A stretch of 64,000 nt of DNA from Patescibacteria group bacterium (GCA_041649475.1 JBAZNA010000001.1:750594-814593), one strand, 5' to 3'. Shown: positions 40,052-56,120, counted from the stretch's first letter. Notes: a model not told the origin generated them from the letters alone. Numbers and translations: made by a program.

Positions 40052-42012
40052 AAATATTCTTTTTTAATTTTTTCCTGATTATGAAAAAATTTTCCGCCTT
40101 TACGGCCATACCAGATTATTTCTCTGGCGTAATCCGGTAAATTGCCGCCAAATTCTTGGATATCAGAAAAGATAAGTTTATTTTTAACTTTTATTAATTC
40201 CGGCTTGTCCGTACCTTTATAAAATTCATTAAAATATTTATTAAAATCATAATTTAATTCCAATGCCATAGTTTTCTGACAATACGGATCAATCACCATT
40301 TGACCAGTATAATTTATCAAATCGGCGATCTTATCGGCCGGGATGTTTTTAAAATAAGACAGTAAATAATTTTTTAACTCATTATAAAATGCGGCTTTAT
40401 CACTAATAAAATTTAAAAACGACCCTTCTTCTATTGTCCAGGTGACTTCGCCGAATTTGGCAATCACAAATTCCCAGCTTTTTCCTTGGGTCACACCGTC
40501 AATAATCGCCGAAATAAATTTCAGTTCGCGGCCCAGGATTGAATTGGGATTGTTCTCCGCGTAACTAATCAAATCCTGATAAAAATGCGTGTAAGAAATC
40601 TGACATTCATTATGGGCAAATATAGCTACAAATTGCATTAGGCCCAAACAATGAAAGCACTGAATCGCCCAGGAAAAAATACTGGCCTTTTTCCAGTCCG
40701 CCACCGGCATGGTTGCGGTGGCGATGACAATTTCGTCATACTCCGGAACAACCTTAGGGTCAGGCATAGAATGAGGCAGGCAGGCCGGAATGCTGACGCC
40801 TTTAATGCCGTAAAGCTCCTGATATTTTTTATCACCCATGATTGAATTGGGAAAAATTTCGCAATTATAAACATTGATGGAGCTGTGTTGGCCGTTTTCA
40901 AGCAAAATATCCAGGCCCTGGCAATATGAATCATAGGTTTCATTGGGCAGACCCAAAATAATCTCCGTGTAAGTGGGGATGCCTTCATTGTTATATTGCT
41001 GCAACAGCTCTTTAAAATTATCTATGCGCATGTTGATACGGCCGACGGCTTCAAGGGTGCGCGGATTTAAACTCTGAAAAGACAAAGTTACGCCTTTACA
41101 CATCTTGTTTTTATTAAGCTCCTTGTTCATTTCAAAAATGGTTCGATTGCTGTTTTTGGCGTAGGAAGTGCGAAATTTTTGCGGAAAACCGTATTTATTT
41201 TTTATCTCAATGAATTTTTTTATAAAACCGGTATCTCTGGGCAGAATGCCAAAATTGGAATCACAGCCAAACACAAACTCCACTTTATTTTTACCAAACC
41301 ATTCAATTTCGTCTTTGACTCTTTGCTCGTCAAAAGGCAGGATCCGTTTACAATTCATCAACGGTGAACCCCAATCACAATAAGCACAGCCATACGGACA
41401 CCCCCGGTTGGTCTCCAAACTGGCCGTAAAAGAATACGGCGATGATTGGACAATTTTATCAAATACGCCAGTCAAGTATGGCGATGGAATTTTATTAATA
41501 TCAATGTCCCCTTTTTTTATTTCCGTACGCATGGTATTGCCGTTAACGTTTATGCTCAAATTATTTATACGAGAAAAATTTTTATCATCGGATAAATAAG
41601 TTACTAGAATTTCTGAAAAAGGCACTTCGCCGTCGCCATGGACCAGTATGTCTATAAATTTACGGTTTATAAAAAAATTCTCTGACTCAAACGGAACCTG
41701 GTGGCCGCCGAACACCACCAGACAATTCGGATATTTTGATTTAACTCGCTCGGCCAATTTTTGATTATATTCAAAATTCCAAATGTAAGAAGAAAAACCG
41801 AAAACATCCGGTTCTTCCAATTTTTCCACCACTTCGTCAATGTTGTCTTTTAAAAATAAATTATCTTTAAATTCAAAATTTTCCCTGATCCGGGGAATGG
41901 TAAGACAATAACTGGTGATTACACCCGTGGAATACGGCAGAAAAACATTATTGCCGTATTTATTATTCACCTGACACATGTAAACGTTTTTCTTTATCAT
42001 AATAAATCGCAC
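40048..42012 (-). CDS. B12-binding radical-SAM enzyme
   Basis: N-terminal B12-binding-like domain; TNRGCPYGCAYCDWG (CxxxCxxC); 654 aa. Confidence 0.75.
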   Translation of the reverse strand: MRFIMIKKNVYMCQVNNKYGNNVFLPYSTGVITSYCLTIPRIRENFEFKDNLFLKDNIDEVVEKLEEPDVFGFSSYIWNFEYNQKLAERVKSKYPNCLVVFGGHQVPFESENFFINRKFIDILVHGDGEVPFSEILVTYLSDDKNFSRINNLSINVNGNTMRTEIKKGDIDINKIPSPYLTGVFDKIVQSSPYSFTASLETNRGCPYGCAYCDWGSPLMNCKRILPFDEQRVKDEIEWFGKNKVEFVFGCDSNFGILPRDTGFIKKFIEIKNKYGFPQKFRTSYAKNSNRTIFEMNKELNKNKMCKGVTLSFQSLNPRTLEAVGRINMRIDNFKELLQQYNNEGIPTYTEIILGLPNETYDSYCQGLDILLENGQHSSINVYNCEIFPNSIMGDKKYQELYGIKGVSIPACLPHSMPDPKVVPEYDEIVIATATMPVADWKKASIFSWAIQCFHCLGLMQFVAIFAHNECQISYTHFYQDLISYAENNPNSILGRELKFISAIIDGVTQGKSWEFVIAKFGEVTWTIEEGSFLNFISDKAAFYNELKNYLLSYFKNIPADKIADLINYTGQMVIDPYCQKTMALELNYDFNKYFNEFYKGTDKPELIKVKNKLIFSDIQEFGGNLPDYAREIIWYGRKGGKFFHNQEKIKKEYL

Positions 42013-43160
42013 AAAAACTCAACCTCTCCACTAGTCATCTCCGGATTGTTACCAAAATAAAAACCGTTTTTATGAATCAGGTCGGCGTTTGGACAATCAA
42101 ACTCGGTTTTGACATACTTTTTGAAAAAGGGCTGTCTGGCAATATTGCCGGCGATGATCGGCCTGATTTCAACCTCCGCTTTTTCAAATTTATCTTTATA
42201 TGCTCTAAACAATTCTTCGGTTTTAAAGATAACCGGCATGGCAAAATTGGAAACCAAATCCAGATGAGATACACCCAAAGGCAGAATATCTTTATTGGCC
42301 GCGGCAGCGACCTGAAATCTTTTAAAATTTTTGCTTCTTTTTTCCACGATCTCATCCCAGAAGTCAAGCTGTATTTGGCCGATGAATCCTTGAATTTCGG
42401 TCGGACGGGCATTATAGGCCAAGTCGTAAAAAGTATAGCGCGCGTAAAAATCATCAATCTTATTTTCTTTTCTTAGTTTTGCCTGTGAACCGGCGGATAA
42501 ATTTCTGTCCCAGCCATGAGCGCGAACCAGTAAAATCATTTCAAACAACTCTTCATCATCGATGCAGATCATTCCGCCCTCAACAGTTGAAAAATGATGG
42601 CCGACAAAACTGGAGAAGGTTGAGGCCAGGCCGAAGTTTCCCAACTGCTTTTGGCCCAGTTTTGACCCCAATGATTCACAGTTGTCTTCCAATAAAATAA
42701 TTTTTTTATCCGCACAAAATTTTTGTATCTTATCCAAGTTCGCGCAAAAACCCAAGACATTGGTCAAAAACACAGCCCTAAAATCGTACTTACTGAAAGC
42801 TTTTTCCAAGATGTCTTCGGACACATTTAAATTTTTAAGTTCACAATCCAGAATAATCGGCTCAAGCCCCAGTTCAATAACCGGCATCACGTTGGTGGCC
42901 CAGGTTAAAGAAGAAAGCGCGATTTTATCCCCCTTGCGCAGATGGCCGAGATTAAGCAAGGACTGCAGCAGAACAAGATTGGCCATACTGCCGCTACTGA
43001 CAAATACGCTATGTCGCCGGCCTTGTTTTTTGGAAAATTTTTCTTCAAAAGCCGCGCACTCCTTGCCCATGCTTAAAACAGCGGACTTTAGGATAAAATC
43101 CGCGACCGCTTTTTTGGTTTCATCTTCGTGATAAAAAGTTGATTTTATTAGTTTAATCAT
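41997..43160 (-). CDS. DegT/DnrJ/EryC1/StrS-family PLP-dependent sugar aminotransferase (GDP-perosamine-synthase-like)
   Basis: Fold-type I sugar aminotransferase motifs (...VSSGSMANLVLLQSL...). It lies adjacent to gmd and fcl. Confidence 0.75.
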   Translation of the reverse strand: MIKLIKSTFYHEDETKKAVADFILKSAVLSMGKECAAFEEKFSKKQGRRHSVFVSSGSMANLVLLQSLLNLGHLRKGDKIALSSLTWATNVMPVIELGLEPIILDCELKNLNVSEDILEKAFSKYDFRAVFLTNVLGFCANLDKIQKFCADKKIILLEDNCESLGSKLGQKQLGNFGLASTFSSFVGHHFSTVEGGMICIDDEELFEMILLVRAHGWDRNLSAGSQAKLRKENKIDDFYARYTFYDLAYNARPTEIQGFIGQIQLDFWDEIVEKRSKNFKRFQVAAAANKDILPLGVSHLDLVSNFAMPVIFKTEELFRAYKDKFEKAEVEIRPIIAGNIARQPFFKKYVKTEFDCPNADLIHKNGFYFGNNPEMTSGEVEFLCDLL

Positions 43161-43171
43161 AGATGGTAATT

Positions 43172-44140
43172 TTAATCTTTAAATAGATAAAACGTAGCCG
43201 CGTCGCCATCGTTGGCCTTGTTTAATTCTTCGGCTTTTTCCGCAAATTCTTTCATCTGCTGTTTGGAAAATAATGATTCATCGTATAATTCGGCGTATGA
43301 CCTTGGATCGCGCAAAGGGATGTCTTTTAAATATTGCTCGCTCCCCCAAAATTGAAAATCGCGGGAGTCAAACACGTAATCCATACGATTAAAACCGACA
43401 CGCTCGCTAAGTAATTTCATACTGGATATAGTGTGCAGGAATAAATGCCTGGGCGCGTCCAGCTGAACCCAATTAACTCCATAGGTCTTCCAGGCATAGG
43501 TGCCGGCCACCGGAACCCGCACCAGCGCGCAACCGCCTTTTTGAAGCAGAGCCAACGTTTTCTTTAACACCCCTTCCGGATCGGGCATATGTTCAAACGA
43601 GTGGTTAAAAATTATCAAATCATACTGGCCGGTCACCTGGTCCAGAGATTTTTTACTTATCGTGACGCCTCCCGGATAATGAATGTCTTTGGCAATGAAC
43701 GGATCTATGCCCTCCACGTTGATAAAACCGGATTTGCGCAATTTCAATAACAAATTTCCCGACCCGCAGCCCGCGTCCAGCACATGGGCGGTCAAGGGGA
43801 GTTTTATTTTCTCAAACCACTGGTAAAATTCCTCGTTATCCGGATAAAATTTGCTTAAAAATTTTCCCAAAAGATTATTTTGTTTATAAACCCGAAACTT
43901 AATCAATTGTTTTTTTAGAAAAATTTTAAACGGATTATGTTTATAGGCGACTTCAGTGAATGAATAATAATTATCCGGATAATACCTGGACAAATTCGCG
44001 GGAACATTAATCAAACTCAAACATCCGCACCGACCGCATTCCAGATAATTGAATTTATCCCTGAACCCGAACATCATCTCCCGGGCCTCATGCATCTTAT
44101 TGTTCTCTTCATTACCGCAGATTGTGCAATGCAGAACCAT
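43172..44140 (-). CDS. Class I SAM-dependent methyltransferase with an N-terminal Zn-ribbon
   Basis: CTICGNE...CGRCGC (Cys4) then VLDAGCGSGNLLLKL (motif I). Confidence 0.6.
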   Translation of the reverse strand: MVLHCTICGNEENNKMHEAREMMFGFRDKFNYLECGRCGCLSLINVPANLSRYYPDNYYSFTEVAYKHNPFKIFLKKQLIKFRVYKQNNLLGKFLSKFYPDNEEFYQWFEKIKLPLTAHVLDAGCGSGNLLLKLRKSGFINVEGIDPFIAKDIHYPGGVTISKKSLDQVTGQYDLIIFNHSFEHMPDPEGVLKKTLALLQKGGCALVRVPVAGTYAWKTYGVNWVQLDAPRHLFLHTISSMKLLSERVGFNRMDYVFDSRDFQFWGSEQYLKDIPLRDPRSYAELYDESLFSKQQMKEFAEKAEELNKANDGDAATFYLFKD

Positions 44141-44149
44141 AATCTTTAA

Positions 44150-45169
44150 TTAATTCAATTCCGCTTCGACCATTATCTTAACCAGTTCTTTAAATTTAAC
44201 TTTGGCTTCCCAACCCAGTACCCGTTTGGCTTTTGACGGATCACCCAACAATAATTCAACTTCGGCTGGACGGAAATATTCAGGATCAATCTCAACCAAA
44301 ACCTGGCCGGTGGTTTTATCTATTCCCTTTTCTTCCAAGCCGCTGCCTTCCCATTTCAAATCAAAGCCAAAATAGCGCGCGGTTTCTTCAGTAAACTCTC
44401 TGACGCTATGGGCTTCGCCGGTGGCAACCACATAATCATCGGGCTGGGGCTCTTGGAGCATCAGCCACATTGCTTCCACATACTCTTTGGCATAACCCCA
44501 GTCGCGCCTGGCTTCCAAATTACCCAAATAAATTTTATTCTGCTTACCGGCCTTAATTTGCGCGAAGCCGTGAACAATCTTTTTAGTCACAAACGTGCCG
44601 CCGCGCCGGGGCGATTCATGGTTGAATAAAATACCATTACAAATAAACATTCCGTAGGATTCGCGATAATTAACCGCCAGATTATGGGCAAAAACTTTGG
44701 CGCAGCCGTATGGACTCCGGGGATAAAATGGAGTGGTTTCGGTTTGGGGGGTTTCCTTAACTTTACCAAACATTTCCGATGACCCGGCCTGATAAAATTT
44801 AACCTTCAGACCGCTTTCCCGCACCGCGTCTAAAACCCGCAGAGTGCCCAGGCCGACCGTATCGCAGGTATATTCCGGAAGTTCAAAACTGACGCGCACA
44901 TGGCTCTGTGCTCCCAAATTATAGATTTCATCCGGCTGAACCTTTTCTAAAATTCTGTTGATATTACTCCCATCGGTCAAATCTCCGTAATATATTTTCA
45001 ATCTGGCGTCTTTCTCATGTTTCTCCTGAAAAATATGATCAATGCGGCCGGTATTAAAACTGCTTGAACGCCTGATGATGCCGTGGACTTCATAGCCCTT
45101 GCCTAATAAAAATTCAGCAAGATAAGAACCGTCTTGCCCGGTCAAACCAGTGATAAAAGCTTTTTTCAT
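44150..45169 (-). CDS. gmd: GDP-mannose 4,6-dehydratase
   Basis: [46 protein letters not shown] closely matches E. coli Gmd. Confidence 0.9.
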
Positions 45170-46686
45170 ATTATATTTTCTTCATTTTTATATCCAATTT
45201 TTCTCAATTTAAACAGATTATAGGCCGGATAAGCAAAAATACTTATAACCATATACCAATAAAACCACAATTGGGCGTTTGCATCGCCACCGGTCAGCTT
45301 GAAATTGATTAACCAAATTACATGAAAAAATATCGGGGATAAAATAATCCAGATCGCTGCCCTTTTTAGGTATTTGCTGACATTAATGACATTGGCGATA
45401 ATGGCCAGCGGGAAAAACCAAAGCATGTACCACGGCCAAACCCATTTATGCCAGAAAATCATGTAAACAAGCAAACTGGCTAATAACACAGAGATGAACT
45501 CCGTTTCGCTCCAACTGGCTTTTTTAAACAAAATTAAAAACATTTTTTTAATAATCGGATACATCATGAATAAAACTAAGGCGATTAAACTGAACTGCAC
45601 AACTCTGGTCAGATACCAATGAAAATTCGCGCCGATCAAAAACTGGAACAACGGCTTTAGAGAATAGTAAATAGCGGCGAAGGTGCTGCCGCCCGCCGTC
45701 TTTGACATTTTGCCAAGGGTGGTAAAAACTCCCAAACCATTCCAAAAATGACCCCAGGATAAAATAGTGATTAGTACAGAAAGTGCGACTCCAATTATTT
45801 GCTGGCCTACCAGCTTGGTCCAATTATCTTTATGAACATCCTGCCACCATTTAACTATGAAGAACGGGATAAAAAAAGCCGGAATAATTTTAATCCAGAT
45901 GCCCACGGTTAGGGCCGGCAATACCAGCCACCACTTTTTTTTCTGGGCGAACAAAATAGCCAAAATCACAAAAACCAGCCACAAAATATCTTGATGACCG
46001 GTCGAGAGTCCTTCAAACAGCATGAGCGGCTGCAAACACCACAGTAACCAAAAACCGTTTCGGCTAAAATCGCAACCCATTGATTTCAAATATTTATAAA
46101 CTAACCATCCGCCAAACAGAAAAAGAATCATGACTGTTATTTTCCATAAAACTATAAAGGCCAGTACATTATCCTGGCTTAACTGATAAACAGCGCCAAA
46201 CGTCCTGGCCATTAACGGTCCATAAGGAAACCGCTCATTGAAATATTTCACGGGAGGGTTTACAAAATAATTATCCCGATACCAATCTTGAGTAAATAAA
46301 TTTAGATCAGTGTGCTGTTCGGCTTTTCCGGCATAAAAATAGTAAACTATGTCACCCGAGGAAAAAGGCACAACCAACAAAGCCAGGAACAAAAAAAGAA
46401 TAACCGTGACTATGGTCTTTTTTGTTGAAATTTCTTCTTTGGCTTTAAATGACTTCCAGATAAATATTCCTGAACACACCAGACAGATTATACTAAATGC
46501 GAAAGATAAAATCAGGATCGCCTTAAGCGGTGAGTTTAAATTCTCCGAACAAAAAAGCCAGCTCTGACCAAAATAACACGATTTCGCCAAAATTTTTGAA
46601 TACTCCGCGACCGAAAACCCGGCCAGAGTTCCCCACCCCAACAGCCCAAAAATTACCGCTTTTTTGAAATTGGACATACTACTCAC
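45166..46686 (-). CDS. Large polytopic membrane protein (possible GT-C glycosyltransferase)
   Basis: 506 aa with at least 12 TM segments and no soluble domain. Confidence 0.35.
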
Positions 46687-47983
46687 GATTAGTTAAAAAC
46701 TCCGCAAAACTATTTATAATAAAATCCAGCATTTCCTTGCTGAGCCCCGGATAACAGCCGATCCAAAAAGTATTATTCATGACCAGATCAGTATTTTTTA
46801 AATCCCCCACTGTCCGATACTTAACTTTATTGTCAATAAAATACGGCTGTTTGGTTAAGTTGCCGGCGAATAAATATCGCGTCGCAATTTGCTGGTCCTG
46901 CAAAAACTGGACCAGTTCGGCGCGCTTAAACGGCGCGTCTTCTTTGACTGTCAGTAAAAAGCCAAACCAGCTCGGGTCTGCTTTTTCGTGCCACACCGGC
47001 AAAATAAAATATTTCTCAAATTGTTTTAAGCCCTCATACAAATACTGAAAATTGTCTTTGCGTTTTTGGATAAAACCGTCCAGTTTTTCCAATTGAGCCA
47101 CACCTAAAGCGGCCTGGATGTCAGTGGCTTTTAAATTATAACCGATTTCGGAATAAATATATTTATGATCATAACCAAACGGCAATTCCCCCAGCTGCCA
47201 ATCAAACCTCATACCGCAGGTGTTATCATTGCCGGTTTTGCACCAGCAGTCCCGTCCCCAATCGCGCATTGATCTGACCGCTCGGTTTAAAACATCGTCA
47301 TTAGTAAAAACCGCCCCCCCCTCGCCCATGGTGATGTGATGGGCCGGATAAAAACTGCAGGTTGAGATATGGCCGAAAGTGCCGGTATATTTACCGCCAA
47401 ATTTTGAACCCAGAGCGTCGCAATTATCTTCAATAAACCACAAATTATTTTCCTGACAAAGTTTTACTATGGCATCTAAGTCACATGGGTTCCCCATGGT
47501 GTGAGCAATCATTATAGCTCGGGTCTTCGGGCCAATCGCCTTTTTAATTTCTTCAACATTCGCATTATAGCTTCCCAAATCTATATCAACAAAAACCGGC
47601 ACCAAATTATTTTGAATAATTGGATTAACAGTAACCGGAAATCCGGCCGCGACCGCAATCACCTCGTCCCCATCTTTTAGTCCTTTATCCTCCAGCTTGG
47701 CAGATTTCAAAGCCGACAAAGCCAATAAATTGGCTGAAGAGCCGGAGTTGACCACACTGACATGATTAATTCCCAGCCATTTTCCAATTTTTGCCTCAAA
47801 CAAATCAGTAAAACGGCCTTCTGTCCACCAGCCATCCAAAACCGCTTCAGTCATTGATAAAATTTCTTGAGCATCAAAAACCTTGCCTGATACCGGCACG
47901 GGCGACTGCCCGGGAATGAATTTTTTGGCTGAAAACTTGGCTCTATACGCCTCTTCTAGAGCTTTTTGCAAACTTTCTTCCAT
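46679..47983 (-). CDS. RfbH/DdhC (E1)-like NDP-4-keto-6-deoxyhexose 3-dehydratase (DegT superfamily)
   Basis: KFIPGQSPVPVSGKVFDAQEILSMTEAVLDGWWTEGRFTDLFEAKIGKWLG mirrors the RfbH N-terminus (...YIPVSGKV...ASLDGWLTTGRFN...); 434 aa. Confidence 0.65.
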   Translation of the reverse strand: MEESLQKALEEAYRAKFSAKKFIPGQSPVPVSGKVFDAQEILSMTEAVLDGWWTEGRFTDLFEAKIGKWLGINHVSVVNSGSSANLLALSALKSAKLEDKGLKDGDEVIAVAAGFPVTVNPIIQNNLVPVFVDIDLGSYNANVEEIKKAIGPKTRAIMIAHTMGNPCDLDAIVKLCQENNLWFIEDNCDALGSKFGGKYTGTFGHISTCSFYPAHHITMGEGGAVFTNDDVLNRAVRSMRDWGRDCWCKTGNDNTCGMRFDWQLGELPFGYDHKYIYSEIGYNLKATDIQAALGVAQLEKLDGFIQKRKDNFQYLYEGLKQFEKYFILPVWHEKADPSWFGFLLTVKEDAPFKRAELVQFLQDQQIATRYLFAGNLTKQPYFIDNKVKYRTVGDLKNTDLVMNNTFWIGCYPGLSKEMLDFIINSFAEFLTNRE

Positions 47984-48033
47984 AATAAAAAAGGCAATGA
48001 ATGGCTAAATTCTATCATTTCTACCTAAAAAAA

Positions 48034-48408
48034 TCAAATTTTGAAGACAAACCTTTTGTTTAAAAAGAAGGCGACAAAGGCCATCGGCAAAATCAGAATC
48101 GCCCCGCCAATATAAGCGCTTATTTGTGCCAAACTGAACAAATACAACCCCAAAACATTTAAAATATAGGTCACTCCGTAAACTCCAAAAAACTTGAAAA
48201 TAAGCCAATTGTTATGGGAATTGAAAACAATGACGCCGGTAGTTTTAAAATTAAACAAGATTCCCAATATTGTGCCCAGGAACGCCGCCAGCGCGTAGTG
48301 CAGGCCGACAAACAATAATAAAGCAAAAACCCCGTAGCCAAACAGAGTATTAATCCCCCCCACGATTAAGAACCGAATGAATTGATTTTTAAACAATTCT
48401 TGCCACAT
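48034..48408 (-). CDS. gtrA: GtrA-family membrane protein (polyprenyl-P-sugar flippase accessory)
   Basis: FIRFLIVGGINTLFGYGVFALL; 4 TM segments in 124 aa. Confidence 0.7.
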   Translation of the reverse strand: MWQELFKNQFIRFLIVGGINTLFGYGVFALLLFVGLHYALAAFLGTILGILFNFKTTGVIVFNSHNNWLIFKFFGVYGVTYILNVLGLYLFSLAQISAYIGGAILILPMAFVAFFLNKRFVFKI

Positions 48409-48410
48409 AA

Positions 48411-49355
48411 TTAATCAAAATTTATTCGTTCCTTTTCTATTACTAACGGTTTGTGCTTAACTTGCGTATAAATTGCCCCAATATATTCGCCCAGGACCCC
48501 GATAAAAAATAACTGGACCGAACCTAAAAAGAAAATCCCAATTGTTAAAGGCGCCAGGCCGGCTTCAAACCGACTCCAGAAAAGCAATTTATAAATAAAA
48601 TATATCAACCCGACCAGTAAGCTAACCAAGGATAAGCCAAAACCAATAAAACTGGCCAAGCGCAGCGGTATTTTGGAGTGATTGACAAATCCCAACATGG
48701 CCATGTCATACAGGGTATAAAAATTATTTTGTGACTTCCCTTTTTTTCTTTCGGCCTGGGTGTATGTCACTTCAGCGCGCGGAAACCCGATTTCGGTAAT
48801 GAGTCCCCGAAAATATGGATACGGATCGTCAAACTTTCGTAGGGCCTCAATAAATTTTTGGTCATACAGCCCAAAGCCGTTAAAATTTTTAATTTGCTCA
48901 TTCTCGGCAAATTTGCCGATCAAACCATAATATATTTTGCGAATCGCGAACATTACAGGGTTTTCATCGCTTTTATTTTTTATGCCAATAACGACCTTAT
49001 AACCCTCTTCCCATTTTTTAATGAAGTCATTTATAACCGCGGGCGGTTCTTGTAAATCAGCGGCCAACATAACAACCGCGTCCCCTTGCGCTTTAAGCAA
49101 AGCATAATATGGCGAACGGATATGGCCAAAATTTCTGGCATTGACAATAATTTTTACATTTTTATCTTCCTTGGCGATATTTTTCAAAATATTTACGGTT
49201 TCATCTTTGGAATCATTGTCAATAAAAATATGCTCATAATCGTACTGCGGAAAATTGGCAAAAAGCTCTTTTACCTGCTCTCGCGCGGCCGCCACATTAT
49301 CCTGTTCATTATAAGTAGGTGTAATGATGCTGATTTTTTTGCGAAATTCAGACAT
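48411..49355 (-). CDS. gtrB: GtrB/ArnC/Dpm1-like GT2 polyprenyl-phosphate sugar transferase
   Basis: ISIITPTYNEQDNVAAAREQV...IFIDNDSKDETV plus two C-terminal TM segments; sits next to gtrA. Confidence 0.75.
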   Translation of the reverse strand: MSEFRKKISIITPTYNEQDNVAAAREQVKELFANFPQYDYEHIFIDNDSKDETVNILKNIAKEDKNVKIIVNARNFGHIRSPYYALLKAQGDAVVMLAADLQEPPAVINDFIKKWEEGYKVVIGIKNKSDENPVMFAIRKIYYGLIGKFAENEQIKNFNGFGLYDQKFIEALRKFDDPYPYFRGLITEIGFPRAEVTYTQAERKKGKSQNNFYTLYDMAMLGFVNHSKIPLRLASFIGFGLSLVSLLVGLIYFIYKLLFWSRFEAGLAPLTIGIFFLGSVQLFFIGVLGEYIGAIYTQVKHKPLVIEKERINFD

Positions 49356-49359
49356 ATAT

Positions 49360-49827
49360 TTATTTTAAATATTTTTGAATTTTTTCCCACAATTCTTTAT
49401 GATTTTCAATAATATTTTTTGGCATTTTTTTAAAAAATTTACCCTGTTTGGGGGTCATAAATGTTTTGCAAAGAAAAGTTAGAGAAACAACGTGACCGCG
49501 GGAGGCCTGGCTGCAATCTTTGGCAAATAAAAATTTAGCACTTTCCAGGTTAACGCCGAGTTCTTTCCAAGCCACCGCATCTATGCGTTCCTCAAAAGTT
49601 TCCCGGAAACGCATCAAGCCACCGGGAAAATGCCAACCTCTCCACCATTTATCACTGCGCCAGGTAAGCAGGAGTTCGCCTTTTTTATTCACCACCGCCA
49701 GTTCACAAGCCACAAACGGAACAATACCTAACAAGGCATCAAAAACCGGCTGGGGCAGGCCCTCATGCGGATTGTCTATTTTTTTGAGCAGTGAAGATAA
49801 TTGTTTTAGCTCTTTGGCAGTAAGCAT
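49360..49827 (-). CDS. NUDIX hydrolase (possibly GDP-sugar glycosyl hydrolase, NudD/Gmm-like)
   Basis: 155 aa with a NUDIX-box-like GGLMRFRETFEERIDAVAWKELG; the box is degenerate. Confidence 0.4.
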   Translation of the reverse strand: MLTAKELKQLSSLLKKIDNPHEGLPQPVFDALLGIVPFVACELAVVNKKGELLLTWRSDKWWRGWHFPGGLMRFRETFEERIDAVAWKELGVNLESAKFLFAKDCSQASRGHVVSLTFLCKTFMTPKQGKFFKKMPKNIIENHKELWEKIQKYLK

Positions 49828-49831
49828 ATCT

Positions 49832-51505
49832 TTATTCTTTATACATCCCCGCTAACCATTTTTCCAGCATGGGTTGACTGGGATCAAGCATCAGCTCGCA
49901 GACAATCGGACCATTATGATTCATAACTTTTTTTAACTTGTCCAACTCATTATCGTTGTTTATCCGTTCATAAGCCAAACCCCAGGCCGGAATAAGCTTG
50001 CTGAAATCCGGCAGAGTCACACCTGAAGACGGATCGGCGGCAAAAATCTTCTTGAAAAAATTTAAATGGGTGTTCCTAATTGAGTAATAACCATTATTAT
50101 TAAAGATAAATATTTTTAACGGCAAATTATGGTGGACAACTGTTTGCAATTCTTGAATATTGAACATGATTGAACCGTCGCCTTCACAGCATATAACCGG
50201 TTTTTTATTTTCAGCCACGCAGGCGCCAATGGCCAAAGGCAAACCAGAACCCATATGTCCTAACCCGGCATTGGTGATAAATCGATGACCATGCGATATC
50301 TTAAGCGCCTGATGAGAAGTCAAACTGGCCATGCCATTGGCTGTGGCCACATCCATTTTTTCCGGCCAATTATTTAATTCATTGAAAAATCTATAAACAT
50401 TAAGATATTTTTTATCGCCGACATAATTATCCGGATTGATTGGCTCAACCGGCACATCCCACCTGTTTAAATTAATATCCTGTTTATATAATTCTTCCAA
50501 AAATAATTTGGCATCACAATGAACCGGAACATCTATTTTAATGGTTTTTTTATGCATTTCATTTTCATCTATATCAACCATTATTTTTTTTGCCTGGACC
50601 GCAAATTTTTCATGTTCCCAGGAAACTTGCGTGAGCTGTATGCGTTCACCCGCAATTAATAATAAATCACAATTATCAATCGCATAATTGGCTGCTTGAT
50701 TTCCCGGCATCCCCTGCCTGCCTAAATAATACGGATAATCATAGGTAACCAAATCATCAGCAGTAAAAATCGGCGTAACCGTATTGATTTTAAATTTATC
50801 CAGAACTTTCCATAAAATTTCCTCGCCGCCGGCCAAACGAATGCCATTACCGGCCAAGAGCAGCGGTTTTTTTGCCTCCCGCAATAGTTGGGCTATTTTT
50901 TCCATTAAAGCCGGATCCAAAACCGGTTCTTTTTCATCAAACTCGGCCGGGTCAAAAGATTTTAAATTTTCCGGTTCTATTTCCGCGGCCTGCATATCCA
51001 ACGGAATTTCCACAAACACCGGACCGGGTCGATTATGGGTTGATAAATATAGCGCTTTTTCCAAATGATAACGAATTTCTTTTTCATCTAACACAGTCAC
51101 GGTATATTTGGAAACCGGTCTGACCACATCCACTACATTTAATTCTTGCATACCAATTTGTCTGACAACCGGAACTCCGTTTTGGCACGGAGCAATATCA
51201 GCTCTTTTTACTTGCCCGGCAATAACCAGCACCGGAATACTATCAAGCCAGGCGCCGGCCATGCCTGTCAAAGCATTTGTCCCGCCCGGACCAGTGGTAA
51301 CCAAAGCCACACCTGGAGAATTTTTTATCCGGCCATACCCCTCGGCGGCAATGGCCACGGCCTGTTCATGATGACAACAATAATTTTTCAGACCGGATTT
51401 TCCCAGAGAATCAACCAGATGCATAATTCCGCCGCCTGATACCAAAAAAACTGAATCAGCCACTTTTTCCTTTATAAATTGAAAGACATAATCGCTAAGT
51501 TTCAT
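49832..51505 (-). CDS. Thiamine-diphosphate-dependent enzyme of the acetolactate-synthase large-subunit family (YerE-like candidate)
   Basis: N-terminal Pyr domain (HEQAVAIAAEGYGRIKNSPGVALVTTGPGGTNALTGMAGAW) and C-terminal PP domain (GLGHMGSGLPLAIGA...GDGSIMFNIQEL); 557 aa. Confidence 0.8.
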   Translation of the reverse strand: MKLSDYVFQFIKEKVADSVFLVSGGGIMHLVDSLGKSGLKNYCCHHEQAVAIAAEGYGRIKNSPGVALVTTGPGGTNALTGMAGAWLDSIPVLVIAGQVKRADIAPCQNGVPVVRQIGMQELNVVDVVRPVSKYTVTVLDEKEIRYHLEKALYLSTHNRPGPVFVEIPLDMQAAEIEPENLKSFDPAEFDEKEPVLDPALMEKIAQLLREAKKPLLLAGNGIRLAGGEEILWKVLDKFKINTVTPIFTADDLVTYDYPYYLGRQGMPGNQAANYAIDNCDLLLIAGERIQLTQVSWEHEKFAVQAKKIMVDIDENEMHKKTIKIDVPVHCDAKLFLEELYKQDINLNRWDVPVEPINPDNYVGDKKYLNVYRFFNELNNWPEKMDVATANGMASLTSHQALKISHGHRFITNAGLGHMGSGLPLAIGACVAENKKPVICCEGDGSIMFNIQELQTVVHHNLPLKIFIFNNNGYYSIRNTHLNFFKKIFAADPSSGVTLPDFSKLIPAWGLAYERINNDNELDKLKKVMNHNGPIVCELMLDPSQPMLEKWLAGMYKE

Positions 51506-51508: not shown

Positions 51509-52441
51509 TTACACATCTTTAAGCAAATATTCTACAGCGCTATGCACTCTGCCTATCGGAGAAAGTTCTAATCTGTGTAAAAGATAAGGAGGTTTTTCCA
51601 AATCATTCTTCGTTGTTAAAAATTCCTCCGAATTTGTAAAGCTATAGGGGAAACTCAACAATCCTATATCATTTCCACCGGGCATATCCCCAAAAGTGGC
51701 CACCTGAAAATTATCCAATCCTGTCAATTTTAAAATCGTTTTAATTGCCGTCGCCTTGCCGTCCTCTCCGAATTTTTTGGTAATCTCCATAAAATTTTTT
51801 CCTGATATGGCAACAAACTCTTTTCCAAGTTCAATTCTAACTCTCGCTGTTATATCTTTGCCCAAACTTTTATCCTTCGGTAAAACAAAAGTAACTTTTG
51901 CATTCTCTGTAAATATTTCTCCGTTATAAGGCCGGCAGACTGCCAAAATTTCAACCGGAATATAACCTTCCCAATCTTCCTGCAAAAAATTACTAAATGT
52001 CTCTAAACCTTCCTCTGATAAGTCGCCCCTGCTAATACCTAATTCTTGATACACTTTTCTTCCGGCGGCAACCGCGTGAATAATTTGTGGTAATTCAAAA
52101 CCATGATTATAGATTTCAACCATTTCATCCTGTTTCACTTCGTAGAGAATCGCACCGTTGCCTCCGGAAATAAATACGGGAGTAACAATATTCTTTCTCT
52201 TTAACAATTGCTGCAATGGCGGCCCCAGGGTCTTTAAGGCCGTAGCGGCCCGGCCGGTGATAAAAGCAATTGATTTATTCTTATCCAAAATTTTTTCCAC
52301 CAATCTAATTGCTTCATCAACCTTATAATCAATGCCATTATAAACAGTGCCGTCATAATCCAAACCAAACAATTTTATTTTTGCTACGGCCTCTGCTAGT
52401 TTGGTCCTGGTTACGGCAAAATGTTTTTCCATGTTAGACAA
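51509..52441 (-). CDS. HAD-IIB (Cof-like) sugar-phosphate phosphatase
   Basis: LFGLDYDGTV is HAD motif I (DxDxT); a C-terminal GDMPGGND matches HAD motif IV. Confidence 0.55.
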   Translation of the reverse strand: MSNMEKHFAVTRTKLAEAVAKIKLFGLDYDGTVYNGIDYKVDEAIRLVEKILDKNKSIAFITGRAATALKTLGPPLQQLLKRKNIVTPVFISGGNGAILYEVKQDEMVEIYNHGFELPQIIHAVAAGRKVYQELGISRGDLSEEGLETFSNFLQEDWEGYIPVEILAVCRPYNGEIFTENAKVTFVLPKDKSLGKDITARVRIELGKEFVAISGKNFMEITKKFGEDGKATAIKTILKLTGLDNFQVATFGDMPGGNDIGLLSFPYSFTNSEEFLTTKNDLEKPPYLLHRLELSPIGRVHSAVEYLLKDV

Positions 52442-55025
52442 TCCAATATGTTAACGTGGTCTTGCGATTTTTATTGCCCAGTATGCTCTCGTCGTCATAA
52501 TAGGAATCCCCGGGAATGTGGGTGGTTGAAATCTCTTCAAAAACACAGCCATTTTTACTGCCGAATGAATGCTTGGTTCCGCGTTCCAAGGTAACAATAT
52601 CCCCGGCTTTGCTTTCAATCGGTTTGCCGTCAACAACGAAGGTGGCATCCCCATACAAAACATGAAATGTTTCTTCTTTTATTTTATGGTAATGACACGG
52701 ATGCTGTTGGCCGGGCAAAAGAACAATTAATTTTTTGCAATATTCCCGGTTAAGACAAGTGATTAAACTGGCTCCGTATTCATAAAATTTATCTAAACCA
52801 TAATGATGGGAAAGATCAAAATCCCATTTGTTGGAGATGGCGATATTGGCTTGCCTTAAAAGTTTATTAATTTTTTCCACAGCCTCATAAACTTTCTCGC
52901 GGGATTCCATTTTGGCAACATCCGCAGCCATAATCGGTTCTTTGGCCTTAAAATCCTTTGTGGCCGTAAAAATCGTATATTTTGACAGTTCGTTAGCCAA
53001 AATTTGCCCATCCTGATTGGGGAAGGCAAAAAAGGTATTTTTCATATCAACTTTCTCGCCGGCTTTAATATCAACAGCGGCATATGCTCCTCTTTGAAAT
53101 TGGCGTATATCGGCCAGCTCTTGTGGGGCAAAGTCATGTCTTTTTCCGCTAACCCCGCGCATTCGGTAGGCCTGCCGGGCAGATTCCAGCCATTTTTTAA
53201 CTTGCTCGGGCAGAGCTGAATAGGCATTAAGCGCATATTTATCGGTTTTGACTCCCACATGCTTTTCAAAAATTCGCGCGCCTTTAGCCACGGCCATTTT
53301 TATGGCCTCAAAATTATCAGGCGCTTCATGGGTGGAATAACCGATGGTAACTTCAGGATATCTCTCCCGCAGTAAAGTTATCTGATTAAATTGCAGTTGA
53401 TCTTCCGGAGTCGGGTATTGGCCAACGCAATGCATGATGGCAAATTTTTTATTGCGATGCTCCAGGAAACTGACTACCTTATCAATGTCCTCCAACTTCA
53501 CTCCGCCAGTGGAAGCGATAATCGGTTTGTCATATTGAGCAATCTTTTCCCAAAGCGGCCAGTCGGTAAAAGAGGCGCTGGCAACTTTTATAATATCGTA
53601 ATCATGACTGACCACATTTTCCACTGACTTTTCATCAAAGGGAGTACAAATGGTTAGAAAACCAAAATTTTTGGCTTCATTTTTCAACATTAAAAATTGT
53701 TCCGCAGACAGCCGCGTCTCGGAAAAACGTTTAATATATTTCAAATCCATTCTGTCTTTATAATCAGGATGAATAAAGGTATCCAAATCCCGGTACTGAA
53801 ATTTAAAGGCAAACTGAAACTCGGGAAAATCCTTGCTGACTTCATGCATTTCCCTGATAATTTTTAGCCCATGTTCAACATCACCCATGTGATTATTGGC
53901 CATCTCAAAAATGAATAACGGCTTGGTCTCCTTCTCTCCTTGCGGGCTGAATATTTGTTCAATATTTTCCATAATATTAGTAAAATCTCCTTGTAAAAAA
54001 TTAATTGTTCGTTTAATTGCTTCTTCCAGGCCAACCGTTTCCTTAAGACCTAATTCTGTCTGCGCTCTTTCGGTGGAGGGCACATATTGTTCCGGCGGCC
54101 CATCTTTGGCTGTTTGAGCTATTTTAACTTCAACCGGACGCTTTAGACATTGTGCCACCTTTTGGGCCAATTCCGCAATAGTGACACACATTTGCGAACC
54201 GACATTATAGGGCCGGCATGATTGTCCTTTAAAAAGAATTGTCCATAACCAAACCATCAGGTCAGCCGCGTAGAGATATGAACGAACGGTTGTGCCATCA
54301 CCCTTAACCTGAATTGGACCGCCGTTTGAACCATCCCGGATAAAATTGCCGACCGCATAATGAACATCCAAGGGCAGATGAGGACCAACGAAACTGAAAC
54401 AACGCGCAATTTTTATTTCTATGCCATATTTATTGGCATAATATCCGCAGAGAAACTCGGCTGCTCTTTTACTCTCTCCCCAAACCGAGTTAATATCTGT
54501 CGGATCAGGCGCGCCATTATATTCTTCCGGGATATTACTGATATCAGCTGGCTGTTTCCCATAAACAACCCCGGAACTGGTATAAAGAAATTTTTTAGCT
54601 CCGGAGTGGACGGCAAAATCCAGAGTGTGTCTTGTTCCTTCTACTACCGTCTCAAATTTCACCAATGGATCTTCATTATTAAAGGTGGCTACAGCCGAGG
54701 TGGCGGCGGCGTGGATAATATGTGAAAATTCTCCAACCGGAAACTCAAAATTTCTGACATCGCCAATCTGAAATTTTATTGCCGAATTATCGGCCAGATG
54801 CGGCGCTTTCTTTTTAAATTCTTCCAAACTTCTGGTCAAAACAACGGCCTCGGCCTGCAGATCAAATTTTTCATTGGCTCGGATAAAACTTTCCAAAAAC
54901 CAACAGCCAAAAAATCCGGTACCGCCGGTGATAAACAAGCGCTTGCCTCTAAGTTCTTCCCAAAGGCCCGGAGTCAAATTTAAAATTTGATCCAAATCGT
55001 TTGTAAGCGGGTTTATATCACTCAT
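52434..55025 (-). CDS. Four-domain fusion: extended-SDR epimerase/dehydratase, NeuB-like ulosonic-acid synthase, SAF domain and C-terminal cupin
   Basis: SDR: LFITGGTGFFGCWFL. NeuB: PLFIFEMANNHMGDVEHGLKII...IMHCVGQYPTP. SAF: ...KAGEKVDMKNTFFAF. Cupin: HPCHYHKIKEETFHVLYGDATFVVDGKPIESKAGDIVTLERGTKHSF. Confidence 0.7.
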   Translation of the reverse strand: MSDINPLTNDLDQILNLTPGLWEELRGKRLFITGGTGFFGCWFLESFIRANEKFDLQAEAVVLTRSLEEFKKKAPHLADNSAIKFQIGDVRNFEFPVGEFSHIIHAAATSAVATFNNEDPLVKFETVVEGTRHTLDFAVHSGAKKFLYTSSGVVYGKQPADISNIPEEYNGAPDPTDINSVWGESKRAAEFLCGYYANKYGIEIKIARCFSFVGPHLPLDVHYAVGNFIRDGSNGGPIQVKGDGTTVRSYLYAADLMVWLWTILFKGQSCRPYNVGSQMCVTIAELAQKVAQCLKRPVEVKIAQTAKDGPPEQYVPSTERAQTELGLKETVGLEEAIKRTINFLQGDFTNIMENIEQIFSPQGEKETKPLFIFEMANNHMGDVEHGLKIIREMHEVSKDFPEFQFAFKFQYRDLDTFIHPDYKDRMDLKYIKRFSETRLSAEQFLMLKNEAKNFGFLTICTPFDEKSVENVVSHDYDIIKVASASFTDWPLWEKIAQYDKPIIASTGGVKLEDIDKVVSFLEHRNKKFAIMHCVGQYPTPEDQLQFNQITLLRERYPEVTIGYSTHEAPDNFEAIKMAVAKGARIFEKHVGVKTDKYALNAYSALPEQVKKWLESARQAYRMRGVSGKRHDFAPQELADIRQFQRGAYAAVDIKAGEKVDMKNTFFAFPNQDGQILANELSKYTIFTATKDFKAKEPIMAADVAKMESREKVYEAVEKINKLLRQANIAISNKWDFDLSHHYGLDKFYEYGASLITCLNREYCKKLIVLLPGQQHPCHYHKIKEETFHVLYGDATFVVDGKPIESKAGDIVTLERGTKHSFGSKNGCVFEEISTTHIPGDSYYDDESILGNKNRKTTLTYWIV

Positions 55026-55028: not shown

Positions 55029-56120
55029 TTAGTCGCGATACAGTTTGCGCTCTTCCGGCTTAATATAATCTTCCTCATTAAACACTTCATTATATGACAC
55101 CGGTAATGGCTTGCCATATACCTTTGGGACAATATATTTATTAATAAAATCTTTATCCTCGGCCATATAACAGGACTCATAATACTGGCCAAAATATTTT
55201 ATATTTAGTCCTCTCTCAATAATGTCTTTAAGCGGTTCCTTGAAAAAATTCCCCAAGGAAACATGCATATACGGACAGGGCATCACGTCGCCATATTTGG
55301 TGATGGATATCATTCTCTTGACGGCAATACAGCCCAAATCCATGCCATATGACGGGGTTAAATGGGTGAAAGCATCGCACTCTTTTTCCAACCCGCGCAT
55401 ATAATTCATATCGTCTTTGTCCACCATGGCCTCAAAGTTCCCTTCCCAATCCCCGACCGGTTTGGCATAGGTGACAAAAACCGGCACGCCTTTTTGATTT
55501 AAAAATTTTAAAAAATCTTTAAATTCTTCCGACTTCAAGCGCTGTTTGGTAACAACGGTTTGCACAATAATATATAACCCGACTTTCTGGCAGGCCTCAA
55601 TTGCCCGCAAGGCGTTTTGGTACGCACCCGGTCTCTTTCTAAAATCATCATGGGCTTGGCTGTCCAAACTGTCCAAACTTAACTGGACTTTATCAACGCC
55701 AATATCTTTTAAATGTTTGGCTTTAGCTTCATCCAAAAACCAGCCGTTGGAATCGGAAACAATATAAAATTTCTGCGGATCAATGGCTTTAATTATTTCA
55801 TCAAAATCCGGAAACACCAGGGGTTCGCCGCCGGTAAGCACAATCTGCGCCAAACCCATCTCATCGGCTTGCCTGGCCAATTCTTTTACATCAGCCGGGG
55901 TAAAAGCCCGGTCTCCGGCCGGACGCCGCAGTTTGGTAATGCAACAGTGCTCACAACGAAAATTACAGGTGTAATCATACTGAAACTGAAGCATGGCAAT
56001 ACTTTCGCCTTTCTTGATCTTTTCTTCAAACTTCATTATTTTTTCATAAACATACGGTTTCGTTTCTTTTAATGTGTTCCTCCGGCTGGTTTCCGCTGCC
56101 TTTAATTCTGGTTGAGTCAT
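55029..56120 (-). CDS. Radical-SAM enzyme with a Cys-rich C-terminal (SPASM/twitch-like) extension
   Basis: YDYTCNFRCEHCC (CxxxCxxC), plus additional C-terminal Cys (...DVMPCPYMHVS...ESCYM). Confidence 0.65.
   Translation of the reverse strand: MTQPELKAAETSRRNTLKETKPYVYEKIMKFEEKIKKGESIAMLQFQYDYTCNFRCEHCCITKLRRPAGDRAFTPADVKELARQADEMGLAQIVLTGGEPLVFPDFDEIIKAIDPQKFYIVSDSNGWFLDEAKAKHLKDIGVDKVQLSLDSLDSQAHDDFRKRPGAYQNALRAIEACQKVGLYIIVQTVVTKQRLKSEEFKDFLKFLNQKGVPVFVTYAKPVGDWEGNFEAMVDKDDMNYMRGLEKECDAFTHLTPSYGMDLGCIAVKRMISITKYGDVMPCPYMHVSLGNFFKEPLKDIIERGLNIKYFGQYYESCYMAEDKDFINKYIVPKVYGKPLPVSYNEVFNEEDYIKPEERKLYRD

Follow-up and report, generated by a model that had tools for sequence, protein, structure and literature searches.

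The founding precedent for branching a deoxy-keto sugar with a thiamine diphosphate (ThDP)-dependent enzyme is YerE, whose acceptor is CDP-4-keto-3,6-dideoxyglucose and whose reaction is followed by reduction by a short-chain dehydrogenase/reductase (SDR) (PMC9306805). YerE-like enzymes accept hydroxylated α-keto acids of three to eight carbons (C3-C8) provided by cluster-encoded aldolases, and a unifying scheme has been put forward in which an aldolase-made 4-hydroxy-2-keto acid is coupled to CDP-4-keto-3,6-dideoxyglucose by ErwE, MMAR_2332 and MyGE (PMC9306805). Those relatives that have been characterised act as carboligases with ketone acceptors, and predictions of YerE-like clusters now exceed 200 (PMC12247030). 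One of the characterised enzymes, JanthE (PDB 8rph), takes pyruvate among other donors, its physiological substrates being unknown (PMC12188165). Here we analyze a ThDP enzyme gene found in a stretch of 64,000 nucleotides (from now on, the window) from a Patescibacteria group bacterium (GCA_041649475.1, JBAZNA010000001.1:750594-814593). An earlier note on this DNA had proposed that the enzyme makes a yersiniose-like sugar and had taken YerE as the only well-known precedent, which is too narrow given ErwE, MMAR_2332, MyGE and JanthE, all characterised, and the predicted clusters (PMC9306805, PMC12247030). From the sequences compared below, we consider it rather likely that the operon builds a C4-branched 3,6-dideoxyhexose by means of a YerE-like ThDP carboligase, with the product of a NeuB-cupin protein as donor and a long branch as the result. 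Two genes are central to this proposal:

49832-51505, minus strand: gene of the ThDP enzyme (557 amino acids, ATG start)
46679-47983, minus strand: gene of E1/RfbH, a sugar 3-dehydratase (434 amino acids, ATG start)

Their coordinates are exactly those of the earlier note, which was also right in describing the neighbourhood. The RfbH/E1-like gene, a GtrA/GtrB pair and a NUDIX gene are all on the minus strand together with the ThDP gene; between the ThDP and E1 genes, and in the same direction, lie the NUDIX gene, a GtrB-like family 2 glycosyltransferase (GT2) gene and the GtrA gene, separated by gaps of 2-50 nt or overlapping. They are part of a series of twenty minus-strand genes arranged head-to-tail between 61051 and 37013, in which neighbours are spaced by -32 to +50 nt, and the remainder of the window also consists of glycan biosynthesis genes, nearly all of them on the minus strand. 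No ilv gene (ilvN/H, ilvC or ilvD) appeared among the open reading frames (ORFs) scanned in the 64 kb, so the ThDP gene does lie in a glycan operon and away from ilv genes. The best 120 homologs of the enzyme are 64-82% identical to it, and those with a name come mostly from metagenome-assembled genomes (MAGs) of Patescibacteria, Magasanikbacteria and Microgenomates. Contigs of 0.63-0.96 Mb carry the identical protein. The host is most likely a bacterium of the candidate phyla radiation (CPR) with a small genome, probably monoderm. As a reference set we used 83 related loci, compared via tblastn and ORF clustering; 80 came from an alignment-seeded metagenome scan (39-81% identity) and the other three (L002, L004 and L005) from a genome-contig scan and from the homolog P0026.

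The ThDP enzyme, which resembles acetohydroxyacid synthase (AHAS), is full length as had been claimed, with TPP_enzyme_N, TPP_enzyme_M and TPP_enzyme_C all complete (Pfam, E 1e-28 to 1e-33). The cofactor-activating Glu47 and the Mg-ThDP motif (GDG...NN, residues G442-D443-G444...N470) are invariant among 25 homologs, the motif string of the window enzyme being GDGSIMFNIQELQTVVHHNLPLKIFIFNNN. The top NCBIfam model was that of AHAS (TIGR00118, E 2e-98), with 330 bits against a cutoff of 538.35, and the remaining AHAS models were more than 400 bits short of each cutoff. Among proteins of solved structure the best score was that of JanthE (357 bits), followed at 230 bits by PpYerE (5ahk) and at 210 bits by plant AHAS, with no other AHAS scoring higher than the latter. 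Pairwise identities were 36% to JanthE, 31% to PpYerE and 29% to IlvI. In a trimmed alignment, the window enzyme, JanthE, PpYerE and the metagenomic relatives displayed have in common an insertion of 6-8 residues followed by R-x-x-G, and this insertion is absent from IlvI, IlvB and Gcl. Besides, the Trp of the AHAS LGMV-QW motif, the residue that specifies the acceptor, is replaced (NNNGYYSIRNTHL in the window versus NNRYLGMVKQWQ in IlvI). The residues reported to contact FAD in JanthE (Y268 and P293) are Pro and Thr here, and the middle domain is present.

The placement against YerE and IlvB that the earlier note had advised came out on the side of YerE. In neighbour-joining trees with 200 bootstrap replicates, built without the authentic YpYerE, ErwE, MMAR_2332 and MyGE sequences, the E1-linked enzymes grouped with JanthE, PpYerE, the Chromobacterium and Azoarcus enzymes (see below) and the window protein, apart from IlvB/IlvI, in 198 of the 200 replicates. 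The close clade of the window enzyme was recovered in all 200. Altogether, we hold with considerable confidence that this is a YerE-like carboligase acting on the E1 product. It is not an AHAS and most likely serves as a sugar-branching enzyme in a cell-surface glycan operon, where it would cross-couple a ketone and an α-keto acid to give a tertiary alcohol.

Several features of this family were observed along the way. The public gene call (P0001, 530 amino acids) begins 27 codons downstream of the conserved Met1 (window 51425-51505); the 557-residue start is the correct one because the homologs align from Met1. Close-clade enzymes stop at about residue 557 (the window C-terminus corresponds to 49832-49960) and lack a C-terminal tail of some 40-50 residues with a PLEDxSPL motif that is present in JanthE, in the Chromobacterium enzyme and in most metagenomic relatives. 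The tail includes K567, a hotspot in the engineering of JanthE (PMC12188165), and the tail-less enzymes may have a more open active site. As to the ThDP motif, 79 of the 84 sequences tested carry GDG and one CDG, four falling outside the search pattern; the Chromobacterium (L091 11491-13320) and Azoarcus (L092 11495-13345) enzymes have SDG instead. One homolog, P0053 (787 amino acids, on a 4.9-kb metagenome contig), is a natural fusion of a ThDP enzyme, 71% identical to that of the window, with a C-terminal HAD_2 phosphatase.

The E1 gene product matched DegT_DnrJ_EryC1 (Pfam, E 9e-96) and RfbH (NCBIfam NF011936) with 692.8 bits, well over the cutoff of 423. It aligned with the Yersinia E1 (PDB 3bcx) at E 1.1e-164, and the active-site string SFYPAHHITMGEGG is identical in both. 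The entry of the H220K mutant (3bb8) reads AKH, with the K exactly at the first His of SFYPAHHITMGEGG; since 3bb8 differs only at that first His, His215 of the window protein is the equivalent of E1 His220. This was the residue that the earlier note had singled out to be checked, and it is indeed His instead of Lys, with four cysteines in addition. The two checks by which the note could have been refuted, this one and the placement of the ThDP enzyme, thus both spoke for a sugar role. Specifically, Cys188, 246, 248 and 256 align with Cys193, 251, 253 and 261 of E1 (C-X57-C-X1-C-X7-C), which we take to be the ligands of the [2Fe-2S] cluster. The same His and four-Cys pattern was found in 31 of 35 aligned E1 homologs from related loci and in the DegT-family neighbour of JanthE. 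By its sequence, then, the product of 46679-47983 is a true E1/RfbH, a CDP-4-keto-6-deoxyglucose 3-dehydratase dependent on pyridoxamine 5'-phosphate (PMP) and [2Fe-2S]. Two genes further upstream in the operon would provide its substrate:

58208-58996, minus strand: RfbF-like glucose-1-phosphate cytidylyltransferase, which makes CDP-glucose (TIGR02623, 277.9 bits, cutoff 300.25)
57224-58186, minus strand: RfbG-like CDP-glucose 4,6-dehydratase, divergent (TIGR02622, the best NCBIfam match, 197 bits, cutoff 278)

The RfbF-like protein is 40-42% identical to the NTP-transferases that head the JanthE, Chromobacterium and Azoarcus cassettes. The top PDB match of the RfbG-like one is the CDP-glucose 4,6-dehydratase of Yersinia (1rkx, 130 bits), and its SSDKAY and YDVSK motifs align with TSDKCY and YSNSK of 1rkx. 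Judged by these matches, the pair completes the route to CDP-4-keto-6-deoxyglucose. No E3/AscD reductase was detected in the window, either by a six-frame scan for the plant-type ferredoxin motif or by tblastn with the AscD-like ORF of L044, and an NCBIfam scan of the remaining window ORFs gave only GT2, PGI/PMI, RmlD-like and RmlB matches and no ferredoxin-flavin reductase. A gene of E3/AscD type was found in only 2 of the 83 related loci, with none within 10 kb of JanthE nor in the Chromobacterium and Azoarcus clusters.

The donor side and the tailoring would involve a group of genes next to or near the ThDP gene:

52434-55025, minus strand: 863-residue SDR-NeuB-cupin fusion (Pfam Epimerase, NeuB, Cupin_2)
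51509-52441, minus strand: Cof-type HAD-IIB phosphatase (Pfam Hydrolase_3, TIGR00099)
49360-49827, minus strand: NUDIX hydrolase, weakly similar to GDP-mannose mannosyl hydrolase (Pfam NUDIX; NF011963, a weak 29 bits)
55029-56120, minus strand: radical SAM/SPASM protein, a conserved cassette member (Pfam Radical_SAM, Fer4_12, SPASM)
56125-57255, minus strand: TylC3-type sugar C-methyltransferase (Pfam Methyltransf_13, Methyltransf_23, Methyltransf_14)

In the fusion, an extended SDR (residues ~1-350) is followed by a NeuB-like synthase dependent on phosphoenolpyruvate (PEP) (~351-705) and by a cupin domain of the sugar-isomerase type (~706-863); the SDR and the NeuB-cupin are separate genes in L002 and L004. 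By far the best solved relative of the NeuB domain is 3g8r (396 bits versus 91 for Neisseria NeuB), and the domain falls under the curated cutoffs of both NeuB (TIGR03569, 146 versus 400 bits) and PseI (TIGR03586, 133 versus 340 bits). It keeps the positions aligned to E25, K129, S132, S154, S213, H215, E234 and H236 of Neisseria NeuB (NmNeuB), presumably the PEP and metal ligands. At the position of NmNeuB R314, an arginine that we assume to bind the acetamido group of ManNAc, there is a Phe. The cupin domain resembles the D-lyxose/D-mannose ketol-isomerases 2y0o and 7nzo (E ~2e-8). We searched as well for a CMP-ulosonate synthetase (CTP_transf_3-like) and found none in the window or in the related loci, by a tblastn seeded with E. 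coli KdsB that has limited sensitivity and gave trivial N-terminal nucleotide-binding matches alone.

The Cof-type HAD phosphatase was found in nine related loci, every one of the close clade, and its place is taken in L013, L014 and L079 by a HAD_2 phosphatase that is unrelated to it and encoded immediately downstream of the ThDP enzyme. The three best PDB matches of the NUDIX protein are GDP-mannose mannosyl hydrolases (E 7e-5); its homologs are 73-79% identical beside the ThDP gene in L002 and L006 and 32-33% in Chromobacterium and Azoarcus. The radical SAM protein, with weak PDB matches (MoaA and the decarboxylase BlsE), is 61-69% identical in close-clade loci and 41-42% in Chromobacterium and Azoarcus, and the C-methyltransferase reaches 62-63% in L013 and L014 and 50-53% in the Chromobacterium and Azoarcus cassettes. 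The radical SAM/SPASM protein was also weighed as a substitute for E3, and its matches spoke neither for nor against that role.

The survey of the 83 loci indicated which of these genes travel with the ThDP gene. RfbH/DegT-family homologs are present in 38 loci, in 33 of them with at least 45% identity to the window E1; these 33 lie at a median distance of 1.65 kb from the ThDP gene, and the strand is the same in all except one (32/33). Homologs of the SDR domain of the fusion were found in 26 loci at 40% identity or more, and in 20 of these no more than 200 bp separate the homolog from the ThDP gene. GtrB-like GT2 genes appear in 34/83 loci (27 at 45% identity or above, maximum 72%), RfbF homologs in 27, NeuB-like synthases in 24, HpcH/HpaI aldolases in 16, SDRs of the adh_short family in 16, an AroB-related cyclase in 15, GtrA-family ORFs in 14 besides the window and HAD_2 phosphatases in 12. 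A NeuB-like gene and an HpcH aldolase never occur in one locus (0/83; hypergeometric P 0.0003-0.004 depending on the length filter). The DmpG-type aldolase, present in L017 and in the JanthE cluster, co-occurs with neither of the two, and if one considers the 26 loci that reach 15 kb or more, 21 carry one and no more than one of the NeuB, HpcH and DmpG types. NeuB-type and HpcH-type loci are interspersed in the tree, an arrangement implying that the types were swapped repeatedly. Closer to the window, the order SDR, NeuB-cupin, HAD, ThDP, NUDIX and E1 is kept, in synteny, on a Magasanikbacteria contig and at further close loci, and all close-clade loci with enough flank have NeuB-cupin and HAD phosphatase genes, and usually NUDIX, adjoining the ThDP gene.

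The AroB-related protein is a putative sugar-phosphate cyclase (TIGR04425, 389 bits; for example L019 13426-14511). It and the adh_short SDR accompany the YerE-like genes in about 15 loci, some of the NeuB type and others of the HpcH type (L019, L024, L029, L031, L036, L042-L045, L047, L048, L056, L080 and L081), and neither gene is found in the window.

There is a similar situation outside the CPR. The set made of RfbF, RfbG, E1, NeuB/SAF/cupin, ThDP enzyme, C-methyltransferase, NUDIX, radical SAM protein and SDR is also found in two β-proteobacteria, at 30-55% identity per protein:

L091 6845-18238: Chromobacterium cassette
L092 6751-19122: Azoarcus sp. KH32C cassette

In both, RfbF and RfbG are upstream, the NeuB-cupin gene is directly between the E1 gene and the ThDP gene (609-616 amino acids), and homologs of the C-methyltransferase, NUDIX, radical SAM protein and SDR (46-48% identical to the SDR domain of the window) come after the ThDP gene. 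Given this gene by gene homology, we are dealing essentially with one cassette, present in two lineages that are very far apart. An uncharacterised Chromobacterium violaceum protein named 'SpsE', the full-length parent of 3g8r, is itself a NeuB-SAF-cupin protein of 495 residues. The β-proteobacterial cassettes have a single nucleotidyltransferase and no gene resembling a CMP-ulosonate synthetase, so these cassettes would offer no dedicated means of activating an ulosonic acid that NeuB released in free form. A flagellin gene lies some 2 kb upstream of the Azoarcus cassette, separated from it by two ORFs (one a GGDEF protein), and this position hints at flagellin glycosylation.

The genes that would export the sugar are found at the end of the same series:

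48411-49355, minus strand: GtrB-like polyprenyl-phosphate GT2 (Pfam Glycos_transf_2)
48034-48408, minus strand: small membrane protein of the GtrA family, flippase-associated (Pfam GtrA_DPMS_TM, E 2.5e-15)
45166-46686, minus strand: GT-C membrane glycosyltransferase of the MptA/B family, putative GtrC-like final transferase (PF26314 MptA_B_family)

The best NCBIfam models for the GtrB-like protein are PgfS (183 bits) and ArnC (115 bits), each under its cutoff. The family of the GT-C protein is taken from the precomputed annotation of an identical gene, our own Pfam scan having matched no family, and its gene overlaps the stop codon of E1 by 8 nt.

Putting these genes in order, the pathway could run as follows. 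RfbF would make CDP-glucose, the RfbG-like dehydratase would convert it to CDP-4-keto-6-deoxyglucose, and E1, with His215 and its [2Fe-2S] cluster, would remove the 3-OH to give CDP-4-keto-3,6-dideoxyglucose. In parallel, the NeuB-cupin protein would join PEP and an aldose into a 3-deoxy-2-ulosonic acid, that is, a 4-hydroxy-2-keto acid; the Gmm-like NUDIX enzyme, alone or aided by the HAD phosphatase, may release the aldose from an NDP-sugar, and the cupin domain may isomerise it. The ThDP enzyme would then decarboxylate the ulosonic acid and let the resulting acyl-anion equivalent attack the ketone at C4 of the CDP-sugar, producing a tertiary alcohol with a long polyhydroxyalkyl-acyl branch. 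The SDR domain would reduce the carbonyl of the branch, a role like that of YerF, and the C-methyltransferase and the radical SAM protein would tailor the product. Finally, the GtrB-like GT2 would load the sugar on polyprenyl phosphate, GtrA would aid its flipping and the GT-C would attach it to a surface polymer. In this scheme the NeuB-cupin protein would stand in for the pyruvate aldolases (HpcH and DmpG/BphI types) that supply ErwE, MMAR_2332 and MyGE.

We propose the NeuB-cupin product as the α-keto-acid donor because NeuB-like and HpcH genes never co-occur and no CMP-ulosonate synthetase was found. The conserved SDR/NeuB-cupin/HAD/ThDP/NUDIX module, together with the exclusion between NeuB and the aldolases, points to a longer branch derived from an ulosonic acid, and the two fusions (SDR to NeuB-cupin in the window, HAD phosphatase to ThDP enzyme in P0053) tie the parts of the cassette together. 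Of the yersiniose-like two-carbon branch put forward originally, the sugar-branching role is thus upheld by E1, RfbF, RfbG and the tree, and the acetyl nature of the branch is disfavoured by the NeuB-cupin module and the aldolase exclusion. As to the donor itself, we see about an even chance that it is the NeuB product rather than pyruvate. More tentatively, a portable cassette of 9-10 genes common to CPR and β-proteobacteria might join NeuB-cupin and YerE-like chemistry, two kinds that had not been connected before, with E1 reduced without a classical E3, and its product might be an undescribed, very long-branched higher sugar, with a side chain of up to ~8 carbons, C-methylated and displayed on the surface; we regard both as possible, somewhat short of probable.

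Several observations weigh against the proposal. The window has no E3 although its E1 keeps the Fe-S ligands. The ThDP enzyme has low sequence identity with those YerE-like enzymes that have been characterised (JanthE 36%, PpYerE 31%, compared with 29% for IlvI), the clade that leaves out PpYerE has support in 150 of the 200 replicates (75%), and the neighbour-joining trees are without the four authentic sequences mentioned above. In the distant loci the NeuB-like genes have no cupin, there is no radical SAM gene and C-methyltransferase homologs are both rare and weak, and the β-proteobacterial cassettes have no HAD phosphatase. Our co-occurrence statistics ignore phylogenetic non-independence, and many of the loci are truncated. 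The link by which NeuB would supply the donor is drawn from co-occurrence, fusion and absence arguments. Besides, JanthE accepts pyruvate (PMC12188165), so a C2 branch could still be what is formed.

Such a branch is the core of the strongest rival. In a yersiniose-like pathway the ThDP enzyme would use pyruvate and add a two-carbon acetyl branch that the SDR reduces, leaving the NeuB-cupin, HAD and NUDIX proteins to make an unrelated sugar of the glycan. YerE itself is the founding precedent (PMC9306805), JanthE, the closest solved relative, takes pyruvate among other donors (PMC12188165), RfbF, RfbG and E1 are all present and the SDR is the tightest neighbour of the ThDP gene across related loci; but the NeuB-cupin keeps its place beside the ThDP gene in different phyla, NeuB-like genes and the aldolases that form donors exclude each other, the SDR-NeuB-cupin fusion ties NeuB to the ThDP pathway, and, for the activation of a free ulosonic acid, no CMP-ulosonate synthetase was found and the β-proteobacterial cassettes have no second NTP-transferase. 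We consider this rival unlikely.

Less probable still, and in our opinion clearly improbable, is that the ThDP enzyme serves the NeuB branch, E1 being a mere neighbour. The ulosonic acid would be decarboxylated to a 2-deoxy-aldose or, alternatively, an acyloin condensation would yield a 1-deoxy-ketose(-phosphate), to be isomerised by the cupin and extended by NeuB. A self-consistent route of chain elongation could be made up of the HAD phosphatase, ThDP enzyme, cupin isomerase and NeuB; in the close clade the ThDP gene invariably has a HAD phosphatase gene at its side or fused to it, and L004 (an 18-kb locus on a 20-kb contig) has the NeuB, HAD and ThDP genes without an E1 gene. Against this, the link to E1 and RfbF extends over the entire ThDP clade, including members that have no NeuB, the characterised relatives are ketone-accepting carboligases (PMC12247030) and the product would still want an activating nucleotidyltransferase. 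That the enzyme is a bona fide AHAS large subunit (IlvB-type) lying by chance in a glycan locus can practically be dismissed, and we rejected this assignment in spite of the top NCBIfam matches (TIGR00118, E 2e-98) and of the label 'acetolactate synthase large subunit' given to homologs by several sources, because every equivalog cutoff is missed by more than 200 bits, the YerE-type insertion is present and the AHAS Trp replaced, the bootstrap split from IlvB/IlvI reaches 99%, ilvN/H, ilvC and ilvD are lacking in the 64 kb, and the homologs in Patescibacteria MAGs, conserved at 65-82% identity, sit in sugar-gene contexts on the contigs examined. The C4-branched sugar with an ulosonic-acid-derived side chain thus stays as our preferred proposal.

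Other glycan genes of the window deserve mention. A second, GDP-based 3,6-dideoxyhexose pathway is located in the same operon (39092-45169, minus strand), with Gmd (TIGR01472, 562 bits), a methyltransferase, a B12 radical SAM C-methyltransferase of the KedN5 family, a Fcl/ColC-like reductase and a ColD-like PMP 3-dehydratase (41997-43160; PDB 2gms, 211 bits) that has His at the Lys position and no Fe-S cysteines; this suggests a colitose-like, probably C-methylated sugar. At 27079-31794 (minus strand) there is a heptose-nucleotide set, consisting of a SIS isomerase, a GHMP kinase, a HAD phosphatase, a nucleotidyltransferase and an SDR, that includes its own gene of the transaldolase/fructose-6-phosphate-aldolase family. 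At 23245-26223 (minus strand) a carbamoyltransferase of the NodU/CmcH type (595 amino acids) adjoins a protein with the aspartate/ornithine carbamoyltransferase fold (314 amino acids), which suggests a carbamoylated sugar. A 734-residue fusion of B12-binding radical SAM and class I SAM methyltransferase domains is encoded at 33166-35370 (minus strand). Before the operon, at 59006-63880 (minus strand), are the genes of a 681-residue Wzy_C/O-antigen-ligase-like protein with C-terminal TPR and of a 914-residue protein with a lamin-tail domain. A single plus-strand ORF (10105-11292) was found among those scanned over 1-64000, and on the plus strand the GC skew stays negative along the whole stretch.

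If the proposed pathway is right, PEP-dependent synthesis would be a third way of supplying donors to YerE-like sugar-branching enzymes, and the orphan structure 3g8r would gain a testable function. The culturable Chromobacterium and Azoarcus sp. KH32C offer organisms in which the predicted sugar and its pathway can be tested. The analysis also corrects a mis-annotation, as homologs in many Patescibacteria MAGs carry the labels 'acetolactate synthase' or 'thiamine pyrophosphate-binding protein', and it widens the pool of ketone-accepting ThDP carboligases, which are of interest for obtaining chiral tertiary alcohols. At least 64 kb of a genome that is probably smaller than 1 Mb is given over to elaborate chemistry of deoxy and branched sugars, an investment that bears on the way in which CPR episymbionts appear to the hosts they live on.

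Compared with the systems described before, YerE-like branching of E1-derived deoxy-keto sugars is a kind already known. The NeuB-cupin substitution, the cross-phylum cassette and the occurrence in CPR are undescribed in the literature covered, which did not extend to a 2024 in-silico survey. Within that scope, replacement of the aldolase by NeuB is not mentioned in the 2022 paper (PMC9306805) or in a 2025 review, the latter containing no mention of PEP, neuraminate or sialic acid, and no link of 3g8r to sugar-branching chemistry appeared in the literature searched. The export genes recall the three-component GtrA/GtrB/GtrC system of extracytoplasmic glycosylation, where likewise a GT2 polyprenyl-phosphate transferase, a GtrA-family protein and a GT-C are encoded together; here, however, a branched deoxy sugar linked to CDP would take the place of UDP-glucose as donor, the GT-C is of the MptA/B family and the host is probably a monoderm CPR bacterium. 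With E1/E3 (AscC/AscD, RfbH/RfbI; 3bcx) the window protein shares the identical active-site motif, the His in place of Lys and the C-X57-C-X1-C-X7-C pattern, and the difference is the AscD-like ferredoxin-flavin reductase, not found in the window. The fold and catalytic residues of NeuB/PseI/LegI and 3g8r are also in common, and the parent of 3g8r is again a NeuB-SAF-cupin protein encoded between E1 and ThDP genes; unlike NeuB, PseI and LegI, the window protein is below the cutoffs, has Phe for Arg314 and an added cupin, and no CMP-synthetase partner was found.

The closest solved relative of the ThDP enzyme is JanthE, from Janthinobacterium sp. HH01, whose cluster has RfbF-like and RfbG-like genes, an E1 (55% identical, with the HCCCC pattern) and a homolog of the window SDR domain. 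Its order is erwiniose-like (RfbF, RfbG, E1, JanthE, SDR, acetaldehyde dehydrogenase, DmpG aldolase). JanthE differs in having a CDG motif and a C-terminal tail of ~50 residues, in contrast to the GDG and the lack of tail of the window enzyme, and its cluster has the acetaldehyde dehydrogenase and the DmpG aldolase where the window has the NeuB-cupin. The SDR in the ErwF position of that cluster (SDR313) has no homolog in the window; homologs of the SDR domain of the fusion, on the other hand, adjoin the ThDP gene in 20 of 26 loci. In the synthesis of CDP-yersiniose A by Yersinia pseudotuberculosis (YerE/YerF), an AHAS-like ThDP enzyme is also clustered with genes for CDP-glucose formation, 4,6-dehydration and E1, and here too an acyl-anion attack on C4 of CDP-4-keto-3,6-dideoxyglucose is predicted, followed by SDR reduction (PMC9306805). 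The window departs from it in that no E3 was found, in a donor that is probably not pyruvate and in an identity of ~31% to PpYerE, and it adds NeuB-cupin, HAD, NUDIX, C-methyltransferase and radical SAM genes to the yersiniose set of PMC9306805. The logic is the same as in erwiniose, caryophyllose and gastriose (ErwE, MMAR_2332 and MyGE), where a 4-hydroxy-2-keto acid made by the cluster is coupled to a deoxy-keto sugar; the window has a PEP-dependent NeuB-like synthase with a cupin in place of the aldolase, and the donor would be a longer ulosonic acid.

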